Assembly: GCA_003934925.1 (NCBI GenBank)
Contig: JQIX01000063.1
Coordinates: 2,030-66,029, forward strand
DNA length: 64,000 bases
Direction of reading: 5' to 3'
Source of the DNA: Epsilonproteobacteria bacterium (ex Lamellibrachia satsuma)
GTDB lineage: Bacteria > Campylobacterota > Campylobacteria > Campylobacterales > Sulfurovaceae
Shown here: one piece after another, positions 1,107 to 17,108 of the stretch
How the letters are laid out: every line of letters starts with the position of its first letter
How positions within the stretch are numbered: the stretch's first letter is position 1
The notes under the pieces: generated by a model
Database searches by the model: none
What the model saw: only the letters and a program-made list of their open reading frames with translations
Told to the model about the DNA's origin: nothing
Made by a program: the position numbers and the translations under genes

Positions 1107-1156
1107 CTATGATAATCTATTCCCCGAGATTATAATTGGCGTAATTATATCGAAAA

Positions 1157-1191
1157 GTGATTAGTGATTGGGGATTGGTGATTTGGGATAA
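1157..1191 (+). repeat. Degenerate heptamer array GTGATTA GTGATTG GGGATTG GTGATTT GGGATAA
   Basis: Five 7-bp units read directly. Confidence 0.7.
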
Positions 1192-1222: not shown

Positions 1223-1231
1223 TGGTACAAT
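1223..1231 (+). promoter_or_regulatory. Candidate extended -10 (TGgTACAAT) for the trehalose operon
   Basis: Matches TGnTATAAT; lies 35 bp before the ATG at 1266, which has a GGGGGAG RBS. Confidence 0.5.
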
Positions 1232-1265
1232 GGCTTTTATAAGTTTTTTGGGGGGAGATGACATT

Positions 1266-4200
1266 ATGCGTAAAAAAGAGAGGTATATAATAAAAAGGTC
1301 ACAATATGACGCTGTTGTATTTGACCTTGACGGTGTGATCACCCAGACACAAAAGACACATGCCAAAGCATGGAAAAGAACATTCGATGAATTTTTAAAA
1401 AAGAGAGCCGGAGGGGATACTTTTACCCCCTTTGATATCTCTAAGGACTATCTTTACTATGTGGATGGGAAACCGAGGAAAGAAGGGATAAGAAGCTTTC
1501 TTGCTTCAAGAGATATAAAACTTCCGGAAGGAAGGAGTGATGACACAAAAGATATAGAGAGTATCGCTGCTTTGGCAAATATGAAAAACAGCTATTTTTT
1601 AGAGCTTGTATCCCAGGGTGTAAAAACTTACAAAAGTTCCATAGAACTCCTTTTAAAACTAAATAACTTCGGCTTTTTAACTGCCATAGTCTCCTCCAGT
1701 AAAAACTGTACCTACATACTTCAATCCGCCAATCTAAGCGCTTATTTCAATACGATCGTCGACGGCCTTGACCTTCAGAACCTGGACCTTAAAGGCAAGC
1801 CCGAACCGGACCTCTTTCTGGAGGCCCTTAAAAGGCTTAAAGTTGAGCCAAATAGAGCTATTGTCATAGAAGATGCTATTGCCGGAGTAGCTGCAGGAAA
1901 AAAAGGGGGTTTTGGAAAAGTTATCGGTGTTAACAGAAACAGACACGCAAAACAGTTGAAAAAAGCCGGAGCTGATCTGGTCGTCAAGGATCTTTCAGAG
2001 CTTGATATTGAGACAAAAACAACAGAACTTCCTTCAGCACTGCAATCTTTTAAAAAGATAGAGGGTCAGTTTAAAGATAAAGAGGTCGTACTCTTTTTAG
2101 ATTATGACGGAACACTCACACCCATTGTCGCACACCCCAAAGACGCACACCTCTCTGAAGCGATGAGAAACATGCTCATAAAACTCTCCAATCAGTGTAC
2201 TTTGGCAGTGATAAGCGGCAGGGGGCTGAATGACATTAAGAGCAGAGTGGGTATTAAAGGGATCTATTACGCAGGCAGTCACGGTTATGAGATCGAAGGA
2301 CCCAGCATCAAAATGGAATATGAGGACGCTTTGGAGTTCGTTGAAATCTTTGATGTATTGGAAGAAGAACTTACCAGACTATTGGCAAAGGTAGAAGGAG
2401 CTTTGGTTGAACGTAAAAAATTCAGTATTGCCCTTCACTACAGAAATGTCTCAAAGAGCGAAGTGGGTCTTGTAGAAAAAGCGGCGGATGAAGCGGTAAG
2501 AAAATATCCTAAAATCCGTAAGAACTATGGAAAAAAGGTGTATGAACTACAGCCTGATCTGGAATGGAACAAGGGGAAAGCCCTGGAGTGGCTGATGGAA
2601 ACGCTTCATATAGAAAAGAAGGGAAGCAAAATATTTTATATGGGTGATGACATCACTGATGAAGATGCTTTTTCAGCCATTAAAACCTATGGAATAGGAA
2701 TCTTGGTAGGCACTCAGGCCGGAACTACCGCTGCCCAATACAAACTAAAAAATACAGACCAGACTTTGCGCTTTTTAGAGATACTCTCATCCTCGATAGA
2801 AGAAGGTAACATCTGGTCTTTGACCTATGACAATTATGAACCCAAAGATGAGAAGCTAAGAGAGGTTCTCTGTGCTTTAGGTAACGGCTACTTTGTCACC
2901 AGATCGGCTGCAACCGAATCACAGGCTGATGATATACACTATCCCGGAACCTATATAGCCGGAGGCTATAACCGGCTTAAAACAAAAATTCAAGGTAAAG
3001 AGATTACAAATGAGGACCTGGTCAACTTTCCAAACTGGCTGACGCTCAAATTCAAGATAAAAGAGGGAGATTGGTTCAGCATAGATGAGACTACGATCCT
3101 ATCCTTTCGTCAAGAACTTGATATGGAAGAAGGTATTCTACATAAACTTATACACTTCAGTGACGCAAAGGGGAGAGAGACCAGGCTTACAGAAAGACGT
3201 TTTGTCCATATGGGAAATAAACATCTTGCTTCGATCAAACTTACAATTATGCCTATTAACTGGGAAGGAAAAATCGAAGTCGAATCCGGGATAGACGGTA
3301 ATATAAAAAATGAAGGGGTCAAGCGCTACAGTGACTTAAGCAATGAGCACCTTAAGTGCATAGAAAAAGGGCTTGAAGGTGATATGGCCTTTTTAAAGAT
3401 GGAGACGGTACAGTCAAACCTTACCGTCTCTCTGGCAGCTAAAACAAAACTTTTTTTAAACAGCGAACCGCTTTTTTCAGTAGAGACCAGATTGATAGAG
3501 AAAGACTCTTATATTGCTAAACATTTCACCCTGGAGTCTATACGCAGTAAAGATTATCTCAGTATAGAAAAGAAGGTATCGCTTTATACCTCAAAAGACA
3601 AGGCGATATCAAACTGTTATCTTGAAGCCAAACTCGCCTTGGAGGATACGGGAAGATTTGAAAATATGCTTTGTGCTCACAAGGTATCCTGGAAACATCT
3701 TTGGACACATTTTGATATCGACCTCAATTTCAAAGATATTAAAAAAGACTATTTTGTAAAAAGAGTTCTGCATCTTTACACTTTTCATCTTTTGCAAACC
3801 GCATCGGTTCACAGCATAGATATGGATGTCGGTATGCCTGCCAGAGGATGGCACGGAGAGGCTTACCGGGGCCATATCTTCTGGGATGAGATATTTATAT
3901 TTCCCTTTTTTAACTACAGACTTCCCCAAATAACACGCTCCCTTATGCTCTACCGCTATCGAAGGCTTCCTGAGGCGAGACGTGCTGCTAAAGCTTTGGG
4001 ATACAAAGGCGCCATGTATCCGTGGCAAAGCGGAAGTAATGGCAAAGAGGAGACGCAAACAATGCATCTCAACCCGCAATCCAATAGATGGCTGGAAGAT
4101 AATACCCATCTTCAACGGCATATCAACTCTGCTATTGTTTACAATATTTGGCAATATTATCAAGTCAGTGGCGACAATGCGTTTTTATCCTTTTACGGTG

Positions 4201-5222
4201 CGGAGATGATACTTGAGATTGCCCGGTTCTGGTCCAGTATTGCCGTCTATAACAGCCGTGAAGAAAGATATGAGATTTTGGGTGTTATCGGGCCGGATGA
4301 GTATCATGATGCTTATCCGGAAAGTAAAACTCCCGGACTTAAAAACAATGCCTATACAAATATTATGGCTGTATTTGTCCTCAATAAGGCGGTAGAGCTG
4401 CAAAAGATACTCTCTAAGATGCGTTTTAGCGAGTTATGTGAAAAACTTCAAATAGAGCAAACCGAGATTGAAAGATGGGAAGAGATACGAAAAAGAATGA
4501 AGATCCCTTTTCATGATGGCAACATTATCAGTCAGTTCGAGGGGTATGAGGATCTTAAAGAGCTTGACTGGGACGTTTACCGTGAAAAATATAGCAATAT
4601 CCAGCGTCTGGACAGAATATTGGAAGCCGAAGGTGACAGTGCCAATCATTATAAGGTCTCGAAGCAGGCTGATGTATTGATGCTTTTTTACCTCTTTTCC
4701 AATGAAGAGCTCAAAGAGCTTTTTCATCAGCTGGATTACAGATTTTCTCAAGCAATGCTTCAAAAAAATGTCAAATATTATCTGCGAAGAACTTCAAGCG
4801 GATCTTCTTTAAGCCAGGTTGTACACGCCTGGATAAGTACCCGGAGCAATCGTCAAGAATCATGGAGATTTTTTAACAAAGCCCTGTTGACAGATATAGC
4901 TGATATTCAAGGAGGAACAACACCCGAAGGGGTACATATCGGTGCGATGGCAGGTACGATCGATATTATGCAGCGCTGTTATACGGGTTTGGAAGCCAGG
5001 AATGAGATCTTGCATCTTAACCCCTCTCTTCCGAAAGAGCTGCGGGAGATAAAACTTAAATTGCAATACAGAGGACAGTGGCTTAATATTGACATCTATC
5101 CCCATAGAGCCATTATTGAAGCTCAGATTTCCAATGCAGAGGCAATAACCATGGATGTAAAAGGTGAGCTTTTTATACTCAGCAGCGGTGAGATCAAAGA
5201 GATAAATTATAGTGATAAATAA
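1266..5222 (+). CDS. otsB: Three-domain fusion: beta-PGM-like HAD + trehalose-6-phosphate phosphatase + GH65 phosphorylase (OtsB1-like architecture)
   Basis: VFDLDGVIT (HAD), LFLDYDGTLTP...AGSHG (TPP) and GH65 motifs GHIFWDE, GPDEYH, KQAD. Start moved to 1266 because the ATG at 1230 lies inside the -10. Confidence 0.9.
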   Translation: MRKKERYIIKRSQYDAVVFDLDGVITQTQKTHAKAWKRTFDEFLKKRAGGDTFTPFDISKDYLYYVDGKPRKEGIRSFLASRDIKLPEGRSDDTKDIESIAALANMKNSYFLELVSQGVKTYKSSIELLLKLNNFGFLTAIVSSSKNCTYILQSANLSAYFNTIVDGLDLQNLDLKGKPEPDLFLEALKRLKVEPNRAIVIEDAIAGVAAGKKGGFGKVIGVNRNRHAKQLKKAGADLVVKDLSELDIETKTTELPSALQSFKKIEGQFKDKEVVLFLDYDGTLTPIVAHPKDAHLSEAMRNMLIKLSNQCTLAVISGRGLNDIKSRVGIKGIYYAGSHGYEIEGPSIKMEYEDALEFVEIFDVLEEELTRLLAKVEGALVERKKFSIALHYRNVSKSEVGLVEKAADEAVRKYPKIRKNYGKKVYELQPDLEWNKGKALEWLMETLHIEKKGSKIFYMGDDITDEDAFSAIKTYGIGILVGTQAGTTAAQYKLKNTDQTLRFLEILSSSIEEGNIWSLTYDNYEPKDEKLREVLCALGNGYFVTRSAATESQADDIHYPGTYIAGGYNRLKTKIQGKEITNEDLVNFPNWLTLKFKIKEGDWFSIDETTILSFRQELDMEEGILHKLIHFSDAKGRETRLTERRFVHMGNKHLASIKLTIMPINWEGKIEVESGIDGNIKNEGVKRYSDLSNEHLKCIEKGLEGDMAFLKMETVQSNLTVSLAAKTKLFLNSEPLFSVETRLIEKDSYIAKHFTLESIRSKDYLSIEKKVSLYTSKDKAISNCYLEAKLALEDTGRFENMLCAHKVSWKHLWTHFDIDLNFKDIKKDYFVKRVLHLYTFHLLQTASVHSIDMDVGMPARGWHGEAYRGHIFWDEIFIFPFFNYRLPQITRSLMLYRYRRLPEARRAAKALGYKGAMYPWQSGSNGKEETQTMHLNPQSNRWLEDNTHLQRHINSAIVYNIWQYYQVSGDNAFLSFYGAEMILEIARFWSSIAVYNSREERYEILGVIGPDEYHDAYPESKTPGLKNNAYTNIMAVFVLNKAVELQKILSKMRFSELCEKLQIEQTEIERWEEIRKRMKIPFHDGNIISQFEGYEDLKELDWDVYREKYSNIQRLDRILEAEGDSANHYKVSKQADVLMLFYLFSNEELKELFHQLDYRFSQAMLQKNVKYYLRRTSSGSSLSQVVHAWISTRSNRQESWRFFNKALLTDIADIQGGTTPEGVHIGAMAGTIDIMQRCYTGLEARNEILHLNPSLPKELREIKLKLQYRGQWLNIDIYPHRAIIEAQISNAEAITMDVKGELFILSSGEIKEINYSDK

Positions 5223-5234
5223 AAGGAGAGGGGT

Positions 5235-6669
5235 ATGCAAGATAAAGAAAAGCGTAGATTAATTATTGTTTCAAACAGACTGCCCATTATAATAGAAAAG
5301 AGTATTGAGGGTGGATACAAGATAGGACATGCAAGTGGAGGTCTTGTAACAGCCATGACACCAATACTCAAAAGAGATGGCGGTGTCTGGATCGGCTGGA
5401 CAGGAAACTTTTTAGAGGAGAACATAAATATTGAAGAACTTTTAGAACAAGAGATGAAGGATTTAAATTATAGATACAGGTCTGTGGATATCAATTTAAA
5501 TGATTATGAGCTCTACTACAAAGGCTTTTCCAATGAAGTACTTTGGCCGCTTTTTCACAATATGTCTATCTACTGTGATTTTGAGGAAAACTATTATAAG
5601 GCTTTTAAAAAAGCCAATCAAAAGTTTGCCCTGACGATCATGGATGAACTTATTGAGAATGACTTTATTTGGATCCATGATTATCATTTGATCAATACAG
5701 GCAAAGAGTTAAGGGAAAAAGGTGTAAAAAATACAATAGCTTTTTTTCTTCATATACCCTTTCCCCCTGCCGAGACATTTAACCGTATCCCCTGGCGCTT
5801 GGAGATCATGAATGCGATGCTCTCTTATGATCTCATAGGGTTTCAAACGAAATTAGATAAGAAGAATTTTTTAGAAGTTGTTGCCTCACTGATAGAGGAT
5901 GCAGTAATTGATCAAACAGAAGAGAGGATAGCTACGATAACAATTCAGGAAGGGGGGGCATAAAGTGGGTGCTTTCCCTATCAGTATCGATTATAATGAA
6001 TTTTCTGATCAGGCTAAGAGTGAAGAGATCTCAAAAATAACACAGAAGATAAAAGAAGGACATCTTGGTCAGAAAATTATGCTGGGAATTGATCGACTTG
6101 ATTACAGCAAAGGAATTCCGCAAAAGTTTAAAGCCTACAAAAGACTGTTGGAAAAATACCCACGTCTGCGCACAAAGGTCAAGTTGATACAGGTCATGGT
6201 GCCCAGTCGAGTAGATATAATCGAATATGCAAATCTCAAAAGTGAGATAGAACAGCTTGTAGGTGAAATAAACGGAAAGTTCAGTCAACCAGGCTGGATC
6301 CCTATAATGTACTGCTACAACCCTTTAAGCAGAACAGAGCTTCTGGCTTATTACAGAGCTTCCGATATTGCATTGGTTACCCCTTTAAAAGATGGAATGA
6401 ATCTCGTTGCTAAAGAGTATTGTGCTGCGAATATCGATAAAGATGGAGTATTGATCCTCAGCGAATTTGCCGGGGCAAGTTACCAGTTTAAAGATGATGC
6501 ACTACTGGTTAACCCTTTTGATGAAGAATCTGTTGTAGATACAATTAAAGAGGCTTTGTCTATGAAGCAGAGAGAGAAGAAAAAACGTATGGAAAATATG
6601 CAAAATATTGTTCGAAAGTTTGATATCTATTGGTGGGTTGATACATTTTTAAAAGTTGCAAAGATGTAG
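5235..6669 (+). pseudogene. otsA: Trehalose-6-phosphate synthase (GT20), split by a +1 frameshift in a G7 run at 5952-5958
   Basis: First ORF has VSNRLP, GGLV, WIHDYHL, FFLHIPFP. Second has [26 protein letters not shown]. Removing one G fuses them as EGGHKVGAFP. Confidence 0.9.
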
Positions 6670-7067: not shown

Positions 7068-8027
7068 TTAGGCTTTTTTGTAAAATTTTACGCCATTTGA
7101 CTCAACAAGCTTTATTTTCTCTTCTTTTAAGAGATCTTTGAACCTTTTTTGACTCTCTTCATCAAAAAGTGCTTCTATATCTTCCTCTGTCAAAGGACGT
7201 TTTGACAACGTTTCCAATATCTCTTCAACACTATAGGAAGAAGCTGAAATATCCGCTTTTTTACGTGATGCTATATAGACAGGCAGCGAAGGGTCAAAAA
7301 GATGGCTGATCTGCAGCAGCTTTTCATAACTGACCGGCTTCACATTAAATGCAGGCGGCCTGTCTATGGTACCGATATCTATGCGTGCAGGCTGCAGTTT
7401 TAACAGGAACGCATTGAGTTTGGCTATCTCTTCTTCACTGTCATTGAGTGTTTTGACAATGAGTATCTCTATAACAAGCGGGCCTTTATACTTCTTTTTG
7501 AACGCCAGCATCCCCGCTTTGATCTCTTCCACATCGATACCCGAATGGGCACGGTCGAGTTTTTTTAGACAGACTTGCGTGGCACAGTCCAGGGAAAGTT
7601 TCACTTCATCCAGTTTAAGCAGGGCTTCCTGTACTTTGGGATCGTTTATAGTGGATGCATTACTGAGTATAAGTGTTTTGGTTCTGCCTTTAAAGGTATT
7701 GATCTCATCTACGAGTTCAGAAAGATAAGGATAAAGCGTAGGCTCACCGTTGGCGGTCAGGGTAATAAAATCGATATCACCGTGTTCTTTAAGCGCCTGT
7801 TTCAGTGCCGCAGTGATCTCTGTGACCGGAACAACCTCATCATAAGCTCCCATTGTCTTAACAGGATCCAGTTCACAGTAAAGGCAGTCAAAATTGCACT
7901 GCTTTTTGCCGGGACTCAGGTCAACACCAAGGGATTTACCGAAACGGCGGGAGGATATCGGTCCAAAGATCACCTTTGGTGAGCGTTGAGCGTTGAGCGT
8001 TGAGCGTTGAGATGTATCAGTTGGCAT
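7068..8027 (-). CDS. Radical SAM protein (Cj1244-like); start either ATG 8027 or GTG 7973
   Basis: IFGPISSRRFGKSLG, CNFDCLYC and ANGEPTLY motifs. The N-terminal SQRSTLNAQRS is the translated heptamer array. Confidence 0.9.
   Translation of the reverse strand: MPTDTSQRSTLNAQRSPKVIFGPISSRRFGKSLGVDLSPGKKQCNFDCLYCELDPVKTMGAYDEVVPVTEITAALKQALKEHGDIDFITLTANGEPTLYPYLSELVDEINTFKGRTKTLILSNASTINDPKVQEALLKLDEVKLSLDCATQVCLKKLDRAHSGIDVEEIKAGMLAFKKKYKGPLVIEILIVKTLNDSEEEIAKLNAFLLKLQPARIDIGTIDRPPAFNVKPVSYEKLLQISHLFDPSLPVYIASRKKADISASSYSVEEILETLSKRPLTEEDIEALFDEESQKRFKDLLKEEKIKLVESNGVKFYKKA
7980..8011 (+). repeat. Perfect heptamer array (TGAGCGT)x4 + TGAG
   Basis: Read directly. Confidence 0.95.
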
Positions 8028-8358
8028 AGTTTTTCTTTAATGATGCAAGCATTCTTAATATTTCTTTGAGTTCCTTCACCCATAACATACCCATGTTTTT
8101 TTCTATATATCCAATTTCAATTCCAATATATATTTGAGTAACCAATTCAGCACCGGAACCTTTGGCAATCTCAATATAGCGCATCTTCTCTTTGGAAGAT
8201 TCTTTTTCGAGCCCCTCTGCAATATTACTGGCAATAGAAAGGGAGGATCTTGTAATTTGATCTTTATATCCAAAATCTTTAGAGTCTACAAATGATTTAT
8301 AGACTTCTACAGATAGACGACAACTACGCTTCCAAACATCAAGTCTTTCACATCTCAT
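8017..8358 (-). CDS. Four helix bundle protein (TIGR02436 / 23S rRNA-IVS protein-like)
   Basis: L.VWKRS...DQITRSSLSIASNIAEG...IAKGS..EL.TQ family pattern. Confidence 0.9.
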   Translation of the reverse strand: MRCERLDVWKRSCRLSVEVYKSFVDSKDFGYKDQITRSSLSIASNIAEGLEKESSKEKMRYIEIAKGSGAELVTQIYIGIEIGYIEKNMGMLWVKELKEILRMLASLKKNYAN

Positions 8359-8374
8359 TTAGCATCCTCTCTTT

Positions 8375-8404
8375 CTCATTGCTCAACGCTCATTACTCAG
8401 CGCT
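8375..8404 (-). repeat. Heptamer array CTCATTG CTCAACG CTCATTA CTCAGCG, inverted relative to 7980-8011
   Basis: Read directly; approximates the reverse complement of the 7980 array. Confidence 0.9.
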
Positions 8405-8415
8405 GTGTCAGAGAA

Positions 8416-9462
8416 TTAGCCCTTCCGGCTAACCCTCTGACACTCTCTTACAAAGTGAATCGCATTTTCTACCGGTACATCGGGGAGGATTCCGTGTCCG
8501 AGGTTGAAGATGTGTCTTTTGCCGCCCATGACTTTCTGGATGGCTTCTACACATTCTGTGGTGGCTTCTTTGGAGTAGAGTCTGCATGGCTCCATGTTGC
8601 CCTGGAGGACGTACCTGTCTCCAAGTTTCTCTTTTGCCAATGCCATAGGGGTACCCCAGTCTACACCGAATACATCGAAGTTCCCGTACACAAGCCCGCG
8701 CTCGATAAAAGCTGGAATTCCTTTAGGGAACATAATGATAGGAATATGCGGATATTTACCTTTAAGATACTCTGCGATCTCAATCATATATTTCCAGGAG
8801 AACTCGTCGTATTTGCCCGGTTCGATCGCTGCTGCCCAGCTGTCAAAGATCTGTACAACATCAATACCAGCCTGGATCTGTTTCTCCATATAGTATTTGA
8901 CCACTTCAGTGACTTTTGCAAGGATATTATGCAGAAGTTCAGGGTTGGTGTACATCATTTTTTTACAGATATTGTACGTTTTGCTTCCCTGCCCTTCTAT
9001 CATGTAGGTCGCAAGCGTCCATGGTGCTCCCGTGAAACCTATGAGTGCCTTGTCATCCGCCAAACGCTCTTTAATGAGCTTAATAGTGTCATACACGTAA
9101 GTAAGTTTGCCTGCCGCTTCTTCACCGCCGATGAGTCTGTCCACATCTTCCTGTGACGTTAAAGGATCAGAAAATTTCGGTCCTTCACCTTTAACAAAAC
9201 TCAGGTCCATACCCATTTCATCGGGAACAACAAGAATATCCGAGAAAAGGATCGCTGCATCCACACCCACGATATTTACAGGCTGTAATGTCACTTCACA
9301 CGCTTTTTCAGGGTCATGGCACAGGTTTAGAAAGTTTCCTGCTTCTGCACGTACTGCCATATATTCGGGCAAATAGCGCCCTGCCTGTCTCATCATCCAT
9401 ACCGGTGTATATGGTGTCTCTTTTCCCAGACATGCGTCTACAAATATTTTATTATTACTCAT
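8416..9462 (-). CDS. hemE: Uroporphyrinogen decarboxylase
   Basis: [33 protein letters not shown]. Confidence 0.97.
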
Positions 9463-17038: not shown

Positions 17039-17108
17039 AGCACTGAGCAGTGAGCAGTGAGATTTTTCTTTCTATTTTCTCAACACTCAACACTCATCGC
17101 TCATCGCT
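17039..17108. repeat. Two inverted heptamer arrays around a 17-bp pyrimidine-rich spacer
   Basis: AG CACTGAG CAGTGAG CAGTGAG / spacer / CTCAACA CTCAACA CTCATCG CTCATCG CT, between convergent genes. Confidence 0.88.

Follow-up and report, generated by a model that had tools for sequence, protein, structure and literature searches.

The DNA considered here is a stretch of 64,000 nucleotides from Epsilonproteobacteria bacterium (ex Lamellibrachia satsuma) (GenBank assembly GCA_003934925.1, contig JQIX01000063.1, positions 2,030 to 66,029), referred to below as the window. On its minus strand, a small gene for a predicted four-helix-bundle (4HB) protein lies between hemE and a radical SAM (rSAM) gene, and two arrays of seven-base repeats enclose it. 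The small gene and its arrays together are called the cassette, and the arrays its arms.

All parts of the locus are on the minus strand. The host gene 5' of the cassette in the operon is hemE, encoding uroporphyrinogen decarboxylase (8416..9462; TIGR01464, E 1.4e-124, and PF01208). A 17-bp hairpin spans its stop codon (8405..8443), an inverted repeat that is 88% complementary and part of the minimum-free-energy fold. The 5' half of this hairpin consists of the final hemE codons, and the 3' half of the opening bases of the insert. Next comes the upstream arm (8375..8404), which reads CGCTGAG TAATGAG CGTTGAG CAATGAG in the sense strand; Tandem Repeats Finder reports it on the plus strand as the degenerate array CTCATTG CTCAACG CTCATTA CTCAGCG. 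A Shine-Dalgarno-like AGAGAGG(A) (8365..8372) is legible 6-7 nt ahead of the initiation codon of the 4HB gene (8017..8358), which encodes 113 amino acids with a pI of 9.1 and is the only open reading frame (ORF) inside the cassette. The downstream arm (7980..8011) reads (CTCAACG)x4 CTCA in sense, or (TGAGCGT)x4.6 on the plus strand, with period 7 and 100% matches in Tandem Repeats Finder. An inverted-repeat search joins the two arms as 7982-8012 / 8374-8404, a pair of 31 nt that is 81% complementary with its halves 361 nt apart. An earlier note on this DNA had described the gene as flanked by mutually inverted heptamer arrays, and both searches bear this out. At the junction with the conserved rSAM N-terminus stands a small hairpin, CCAAAG-GUGAU-CUUUGG (7963..7979). 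It is weak, with 6 bp, holds an alternative GTG start at 7973, and is incompletely conserved among sister loci. The conserved body of the rSAM gene begins at (V)IFGPISSRR (7068..7973; PF04055 and junction alignments).

A promoter and terminator scan found no promoter-like or terminator-like site within the cassette. The Rfam scan of the cassette gave no family; its sole match, a CRISPR-DR model, was below threshold, and that identity is dismissed. No rRNA lies in the 64-kb window, for which Rfam gives two tRNAs only.

Judged by profile matches, the 4HB protein belongs to the PF05635/TIGR02436 “23S rRNA IVS protein” family, named after the intervening sequences (IVS) of 23S rRNA. The matches are to PF05635 (E 1.2e-29, 103.1 bits against a cut-off of 33.8), to TIGR02436 (E 2e-28, 98.8 bits against 24), the type that the note had recognised, and to the subfamily model NF008912 (E 5e-49, 165.2 bits against 124). 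XCC0516 is a four-helix bundle that forms a homopentamer. By sequence match it is the nearest solved relative of the 4HB protein (PDB 2gsc, E 3.2e-13, residues 4-87). The PF05635 family also resembles Avd, the nucleic-acid-associated accessory protein of diversity-generating retroelements (DGRs; PMC10053308).

Cassettes of this subfamily are called type A. They were collected from 74 metagenome loci, mostly at 56-91% protein identity, with five weaker matches lower. The median ratio of nonsynonymous to synonymous substitution (dN/dS) in the 4HB subfamily is 0.15 (439 pairs), so the protein is, by this measure, under purifying selection and hence functional. In about 5-8% of type-A cassettes, the 4HB gene carries premature stops or is truncated while the arms are kept (L029, L176, L178, L180, L181).

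Allele states at the hemE-rSAM junction

The hemE locus was compared across 30 genomes, 29 from the same genus and 1 from the same order. Six of them (L019, L021, L025, L026, L028, L031) carry empty alleles, in which the hemE stop codon overlaps the rSAM start, ATG-(A/S)N-IIFGPI, or stands 0-3 nt from it. Because such empty alleles exist in relatives, the alignments show the cassette to be an insertion between hemE and rSAM, as the earlier note had suspected. Comparison of filled with empty type-A junctions gave no target-site duplication, and a few host bases were replaced.

Other genomes carry filled alleles. The same cassette type occurs at the same position in L011 and L029, with 72-75% protein identity. 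Their arms have changed and remain complementary, CGTTCAG/CTGAACG and CGTTAAG/CTTAACG being found there compared with CGTTGAG/CTCAACG here. Relatives with the gene at the hemE site also have the arrays, the reverse of what the note had said would refute its proposal. In L018, a different 4HB gene (37% identity) occupies the hemE junction, with GTGATAG/CTATCAC arms (type B). In L014, a type-B cassette comes first, and after it some ~20 terminal codons of type A together with the type-A downstream arm, which is a nested or a replacement event. In L020, heptamer arms enclose unrelated sequence without a 4HB gene. Further genomes contain another kind of palindromic insert, a dGTPase-like gene, in some cases alongside remnants of arms, or toxin-antitoxin-like or restriction-like genes. 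The hemE-rSAM junction is an insertion hot spot with at least 10 distinct states.

Additional repeats were seen at the same junction. A second repeated element, CTCGTTCCCA-N6-9-TGGGAATGCATACTTCAAT...ATCAGTTTTT, is present in three genomes (L020, L027, L017). In L007 and L032, the ends of another insert class are formed by GTAGGTCGGGGTACCCTTACCCCGAC, an inverted repeat of 28 nt with arms that are palindromes in their own right. The type-B cassette of L018 has hairpins at both ends and a possible, weak 8-nt direct repeat, CTTTTTGC, which is the sole hint of a target duplication.

Predicted translation through the cassette

The hairpin at the hemE stop codon covaries. Across 12 sister loci, 96% of cells are paired, and compensatory double changes affect 5 pairs. 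Its score for covariation is 0.254; shuffles give 0.111 (none of 500 reached the observed value), and slid controls 0.107 at most. Empty alleles have no such hairpin. Of 49 type-A loci, 14 carry a stop-codon hairpin, and among control stops the figure is 10 of 600. Two unrelated host genes have these hairpins, and so do type-B cassettes at hemE.

The upstream arm contains TGA in each unit of its sense strand, and so has stops in all three frames. The downstream arm is stop-free in every frame. Here the native ATG-AAC of rSAM is gone. Traced backwards, the rSAM frame stays open across the downstream arm as far as an ATG (8025..8027) within the final 4HB codons (TATGCCAACTGA), overlapping the 4HB stop. 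This ATG is the likely start of the ORF, and the open frame 7068-8027 is probably the real rSAM gene. The predicted N-terminus begins MPTDTSQRSTLNAQRSPK, and the downstream arm would be translated as an N-terminal extension reading ...TSQRSTLNAQRSPK-VIFGPI.

The same wiring recurs elsewhere. The native rSAM ATG is absent in 13 of 18 hemE-site cassettes, where the frame extends back without a stop to an ATG lying 7-10 nt ahead of the last base of the 4HB stop codon; 4 of these 13 have no alternative start codon. With type-A cassettes from every site taken together, 31 of 56 contain an out-of-frame ATG within the final 21 nt of the 4HB gene, and from it an ORF of at least 60 codons continues into the next host gene. 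For annotation, this means that the start of rSAM here, and of many genes 3' of such cassettes, probably falls inside the cassette.

Stop codons in the arms were also counted in the sister (B-like) subfamily, sampled at 78 loci from many phyla, where 44 upstream and 48 downstream flanks contain significant period-7 arrays. All three sense frames are stopped in 31 of the 44 upstream arrays, compared with 5 of 44 for the antisense frames (sign test 33:3, p = 2e-7). The downstream arrays are the mirror image (4:36), and the polarity persists when counted by unit cluster (13:1, p = 0.002). A host stop codon lies inside the array at 19 of 40 loci. In type A, the downstream arms show a polarity of 7:22 (p = 0.008).

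Recurrence and competing explanations

About 25 of the 74 metagenome loci lie between hemE and rSAM. The rest are found at gmd>fcl, at manC>gmd and at no fewer than 4 further tight gene junctions, and all have arms of the NNNT[GACT]AG type. In all, the subfamily and its related arms occupy seven or more junctions besides that of hemE and rSAM. When the site is mapped as a label on the protein tree, it changes 13 times (minimum 6, shuffled mean 35). Same-site copies are therefore for the most part related by descent, and a change of site or a renewed colonisation has happened several times. Two other 4HB paralogs of this genome likewise sit at gmd>fcl and manC>gmd.

This genome has 4 PF05635 genes. 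All four have at least one flanking heptamer array and 2 of the 4 have a clear inverted pair, so that the flanking foreseen in the note holds for the other 4HB genes as well, in its paired form for part of them. In the sister subfamily, the flank-to-flank inverted-repeat score exceeds the 95% null at 46 of 78 loci. Two-sided flanking by chance is estimated at about 0.2%, given that about 4% of gene junctions hold an array. Arms around the 4HB gene exceed chance.

Heptamer arrays are also dispersed through the 2.0-Mb genome. It contains 77 period-7 arrays of at least 3 units, compared with 11, 13, 0, 2, 0 and 0 for periods 5, 6, 8, 9, 10 and 11. At a looser threshold, 66 of 104 arrays match one of the four 4HB-flanking units within one mismatch in any rotation or on either strand, where 7.3% would be expected at random. 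The units have 14, 31, 13 and 6 solo arrays; random units average 1.9 and reach 8 at most. In other genomes, a further array of the arm's own family lies within 2 kb at 14 of 56 loci, compared with 3.2 after permutation. The arrays are mostly intergenic, at gene junctions, and the solo arrays have no polarity relative to the flanking genes (14:22:15).

Several individual arrays can be described. In the window, a solo array of the GTGATTA/GTGATTG family (1156..1189) stands 5' of a trehalose gene; its unit family is that of the arms of the 4HB paralog C15:154-462. A gene-less heptamer hairpin (17039..17108) consists of (AGCAGTG)x3, a 17-nt loop, and CTCAACA CTCAACA CTCATCG CTCATCG, with sides that are only partly complementary. 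GDP-fucose synthases are usually about 320 amino acids long. The GDP-fucose-synthase-like fcl gene 3' of the C28 4HB paralog (C28:3034-4395; L003 79-1440, minus strand) has 453 and contains four translated in-frame heptamer arrays, in which exactly those units where TAA would come in frame have TCA in its place. The array immediately 5' of its start codon pairs with one that lies some 55 codons into the coding sequence. Inverted arrays of the GTGAAGA/GTGAGGA family also stand on both sides of two ordinary genes, at C16:12914-13537 and C46:29433-30150. Presumably these genes encode a family-6 UDG/HDG-like (uracil-DNA or hypoxanthine-DNA) glycosylase, judged by eye, and a type III pantothenate kinase-like protein (coaX). 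A short hairpin precedes each of the bracketing arrays, and the motif ATGCAAAC is shared ahead of the downstream arrays.

The explanation favoured here, with a probability of roughly two in three, is that the cassette is a transposase-free unit of the IVS type. A PF05635 gene framed by inverted tandem-heptamer arms would have entered the tight hemE-rSAM junction of this Campylobacterota genome, probably a Sulfurovum, long ago and, without a promoter of its own, would be expressed from the operon transcript. Its persistence may result from a non-polar build. The stop-rich sense strand of the upstream arm would end translation of the upstream gene in any frame, or back up its termination. The 3' end of the 4HB gene would provide a coupled translational restart, and the complementary downstream arm would serve as an open linker into the next gene. 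With units of 7 nt (7 mod 3 = 1), gain or loss of a unit would reset the frame. The arms could pair over some 30 bp, and the resulting stem might be open to RNase III, as in 23S rRNA IVS, only on untranslated transcripts.

Some results count against this explanation. No recombinase and no target-site duplication were found around the cassette. Looking up the exact 4HB protein for a recent second copy gave no record elsewhere. No recent cassette copy was found, and the closest relative of this copy lies at a dS of about 0.9-1.1, so the copies are, on this estimate, old. Because recombinase, target-site duplication and recent copy are all lacking, mobility of the cassette is an inference about its history. 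Of the small transposase-free mobile unit proposed in the earlier note, the absence of a transposase and the spread of the subfamily over many junctions stand, while a recent move was not found. Viral contigs contain only 3 relatives, every one armed, and phages are not an obvious vehicle. On the hemE tree, which is weakly resolved, the junction states are scattered (18 changes, compared with 19.5 when shuffled), and gains are for that reason inseparable from losses or allele exchange. The polarity of stops is also uneven. Upstream type-A arms give 18:14, which is not significant, and 7:5 by unit cluster, and the polarity in the sister subfamily could stem from inheritance of a GTRA motif, not from selection for stops. 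That three-frame-stop polarity holds universally is rejected, as it is strong in B-like cassettes and not significant upstream in type A; for this locus and for some of the family, the three-frame stop is supported.

Another explanation is that the arms serve mainly at the RNA level, as in 23S rRNA IVS. They would pair in the operon transcript, RNase III would cut the stem, and the 4HB mRNA would be released. In the minimum-free-energy fold of 7960-8450 (minus strand; -149.7 kcal/mol, z = -5.3), the arms do pair as a 31-nt, 81% complementary stem, and the hemE hairpin is present. The genome has an rnc-like RNase III gene, and the homologous IVS of Coxiella is cleaved by RNase III in its heptamer stem (PMC4990558). 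The covarying hairpin at the hemE stop would also fit as a protector of the 3' end after cleavage. However, since the likely rSAM start sits within the final 4HB codons, simple excision would behead rSAM, parting its body from its only ATG here and in 13 of 18 sister loci. Ribosomes translating the downstream arm would, moreover, hold the stem open. The G.U wobble signature of a sense-RNA stem was not found in the stem mismatches, which show the opposite bias (A.C 143 against G.U 81 in the sense strand) and so lend no support to selection at the RNA level. Over 59 armed loci (L035-L114), upstream A stands opposite downstream C 110 times, with 54 G/T, 33 C/A and 27 T/G. With more A.C than G.U, the antisense strand would pair better than the sense strand; the excess of A.C may reflect A-enrichment of the upstream arm. 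The stem is read here as forming, at most, on untranslated transcripts, and excision as the arms' main purpose is considered rather unlikely.

The dispersed arrays suggest a different role for the protein. Each 4HB paralog could be a single-copy trans-acting factor that makes, maintains or spreads one heptamer family, its own arms being the nearest members, much as each REPIN flavour has one distinctive RAYT (PMC3116915). The excess of period-7 arrays over the other periods, the match of most arrays to four arm units, the surplus of solo copies and the extra own-family arrays within 2 kb all argue for it, as do the basic pI of the protein and its relation to nucleic-acid-associated Avd (PMC10053308). 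Against it, a 113-aa helical bundle has no known catalytic motif, and for at least 3 array families (AATTCCT, AGCAGTG, TAAAAAT) the assembly contains no 4HB gene. Most solo arrays stand alone and not as inverted pairs, and they lack polarity. The association could also run in reverse, with cassettes landing in or recombining with pre-existing arrays. As an account of this cassette, such a system is an unlikely and tentative one; as a guide to the role and movement of the protein, a REPIN/RAYT-like relation of each paralog to its heptamer family is the best lead. Taken further, and equally speculative, PF05635 proteins might be the missing trans-acting partners of heptanucleotide arrays, one 7-mer family per paralog. 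The cassette would then be the master copy, and its arms would double as a frame-independent stop and restart device suited to life in operons and even in coding sequences. Alternatively, the 4HB protein may regulate the operon: by binding to arrays or hairpins, in the mRNA or the DNA, it would adjust expression of the flanking genes, and the cassette would be kept for the benefit of the host. Purifying selection, tight integration with the translation of both neighbours and the presence of arrays at many gene junctions are consistent with this. It is nonetheless very unlikely, since the occupied junctions have unrelated host genes (hemE, gmd, fcl, manC and others), the junction is empty in many close relatives that do well, and the protein has no DNA-binding motif. 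Least credible are an Avd gene of a DGR and a chance meeting of simple-sequence repeats with an ordinary small gene. PF05635 does resemble Avd, and heptamer repeats do arise by slippage in many genomes (PMC4679880). Yet Pfam finds no reverse transcriptase among the neighbours within ~5 kb, there is no template or variable repeat (7900-8480 contains no long direct repeat), and chance is excluded by the recurrence of arms around the 4HB family. Gene content and the arm-recurrence statistics refute both at this locus.

The transposase-free unit favoured above touches on two oddities without an accepted explanation. One is the orphan proteins of rRNA IVS, whose family is very large and also contains the DGR factor Avd; the other is that 7-base tandem repeats are in excess in many bacterial genomes. 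Should the link between protein and repeat prove causal, it would define a mobile or repeat-maintenance system of a new type, one lacking any recognisable recombinase. The locus is also a clean natural experiment, in which a single genus offers empty, filled, replaced, nested and decayed alleles at the same junction, and it would illustrate how an essential operon can accommodate such a cassette without polar damage.

The genes within 5 kb of the cassette are hemE, rSAM, UPF0114, asd, gyrA, otsA and a trehalose enzyme. The last (1230-5222, plus strand) is a single-chain fusion of 1330 amino acids that joins a HAD hydrolase, a trehalose-phosphatase and the N, catalytic and C domains of glycoside hydrolase 65, an unusual trehalose-cycle enzyme. 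Trehalose-6-phosphate synthase (glycosyltransferase family 20, GT20; 5235-6669, plus strand) is encoded in two neighbouring ORFs, 5235-5963 and 5965-6669, which cover profile positions 2-222 and 240-470. The split at about 5963 is due to a frameshift or a stop, which points to a pseudogene, a sequencing error or recoding.

Comparison with known systems

The papers that were searched contain no description of a general operon-dwelling 4HB cassette with heptamer arms. The closest known elements are the ORF-bearing IVS of 23S rRNA, which the cassette resembles in its working and to which it is evidently related. In the IVS of Coxiella burnetii, the S23p ORF lies within a 28-bp stem with heptamers, and RNase III cleaves it (Warrier et al. 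2016, PMC4990558), and ORF-bearing IVS have been proposed to be once-mobile selfish elements (PMC4990558). The cassette shares with the IVS of Coxiella and Leptospira (PMC4990558) a PF05635 protein, terminal inverted repeats bearing heptamers, a stem of about 28-31 bp and the absence of a transposase. Whereas IVS are found in rRNA helix 25 or 45, the cassette lies between protein-coding operon genes, and it is not a strict member of the class, being located outside rRNA. The IVS protein is decaying in Coxiella, while the cassette protein is under purifying selection. The cassette also differs in that its downstream arm is in frame with the next gene and predicted to be translated.

The arms themselves resemble known heptamer arrays. 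An example is the TAACTGA repeat of marine Beggiatoaceae, which in forward orientation places three-frame stops before start codons and is translatable in reverse orientation (MacGregor 2015, PMC4679880). Like it, the GGGNATC repeats of Xanthomonas and Nostoc (PMC4692102) and the cyanobacterial short tandemly repeated repetitive sequences (STRR) are tandem 7-mers at gene junctions that overlap upstream stop codons. The papers treat gene-less arrays, in contrast to the present case, without a link to a 4HB gene or to a gene-enclosing inverted pair.

REPINs and RAYTs (Bertels and Rainey 2011, PMC3116915) offer a further parallel. A single-copy gene has a short repeat on either side, in inverted orientation, and further copies of the repeat are scattered over the genome, with one repeat flavour per paralog. 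RAYT, however, is a Y1 HUH transposase with known chemistry, while the 4HB protein has PF05635 only and no catalytic motif. The repeats differ too, REPIN repeats being 20-25-nt palindromes and those of the cassette tandem 7-mers.

Other identities were considered and rejected. The cassette is not an insertion sequence or a miniature inverted-repeat transposable element: inverted arms are present, but target-site duplication and transposase are absent. It is not a DGR, as no reverse transcriptase is adjacent. Integron gene cassettes with their attC hairpins are likewise promoterless single-gene units, with imperfect folding inverted repeats and strand-asymmetric mismatches. That identity is rejected as well, because integrase, attI and a cassette array are absent here and the cassettes are singly dispersed in operons.

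The last comparison is with a laboratory tool. Engineered non-polar insertion cassettes, such as aphA-3, carry three-frame stops upstream and a ribosome-binding site and ATG downstream. The cassette described here is natural, and the resemblance to them would be one of function: both would stop translation arriving in any upstream frame and restart it for the downstream gene.

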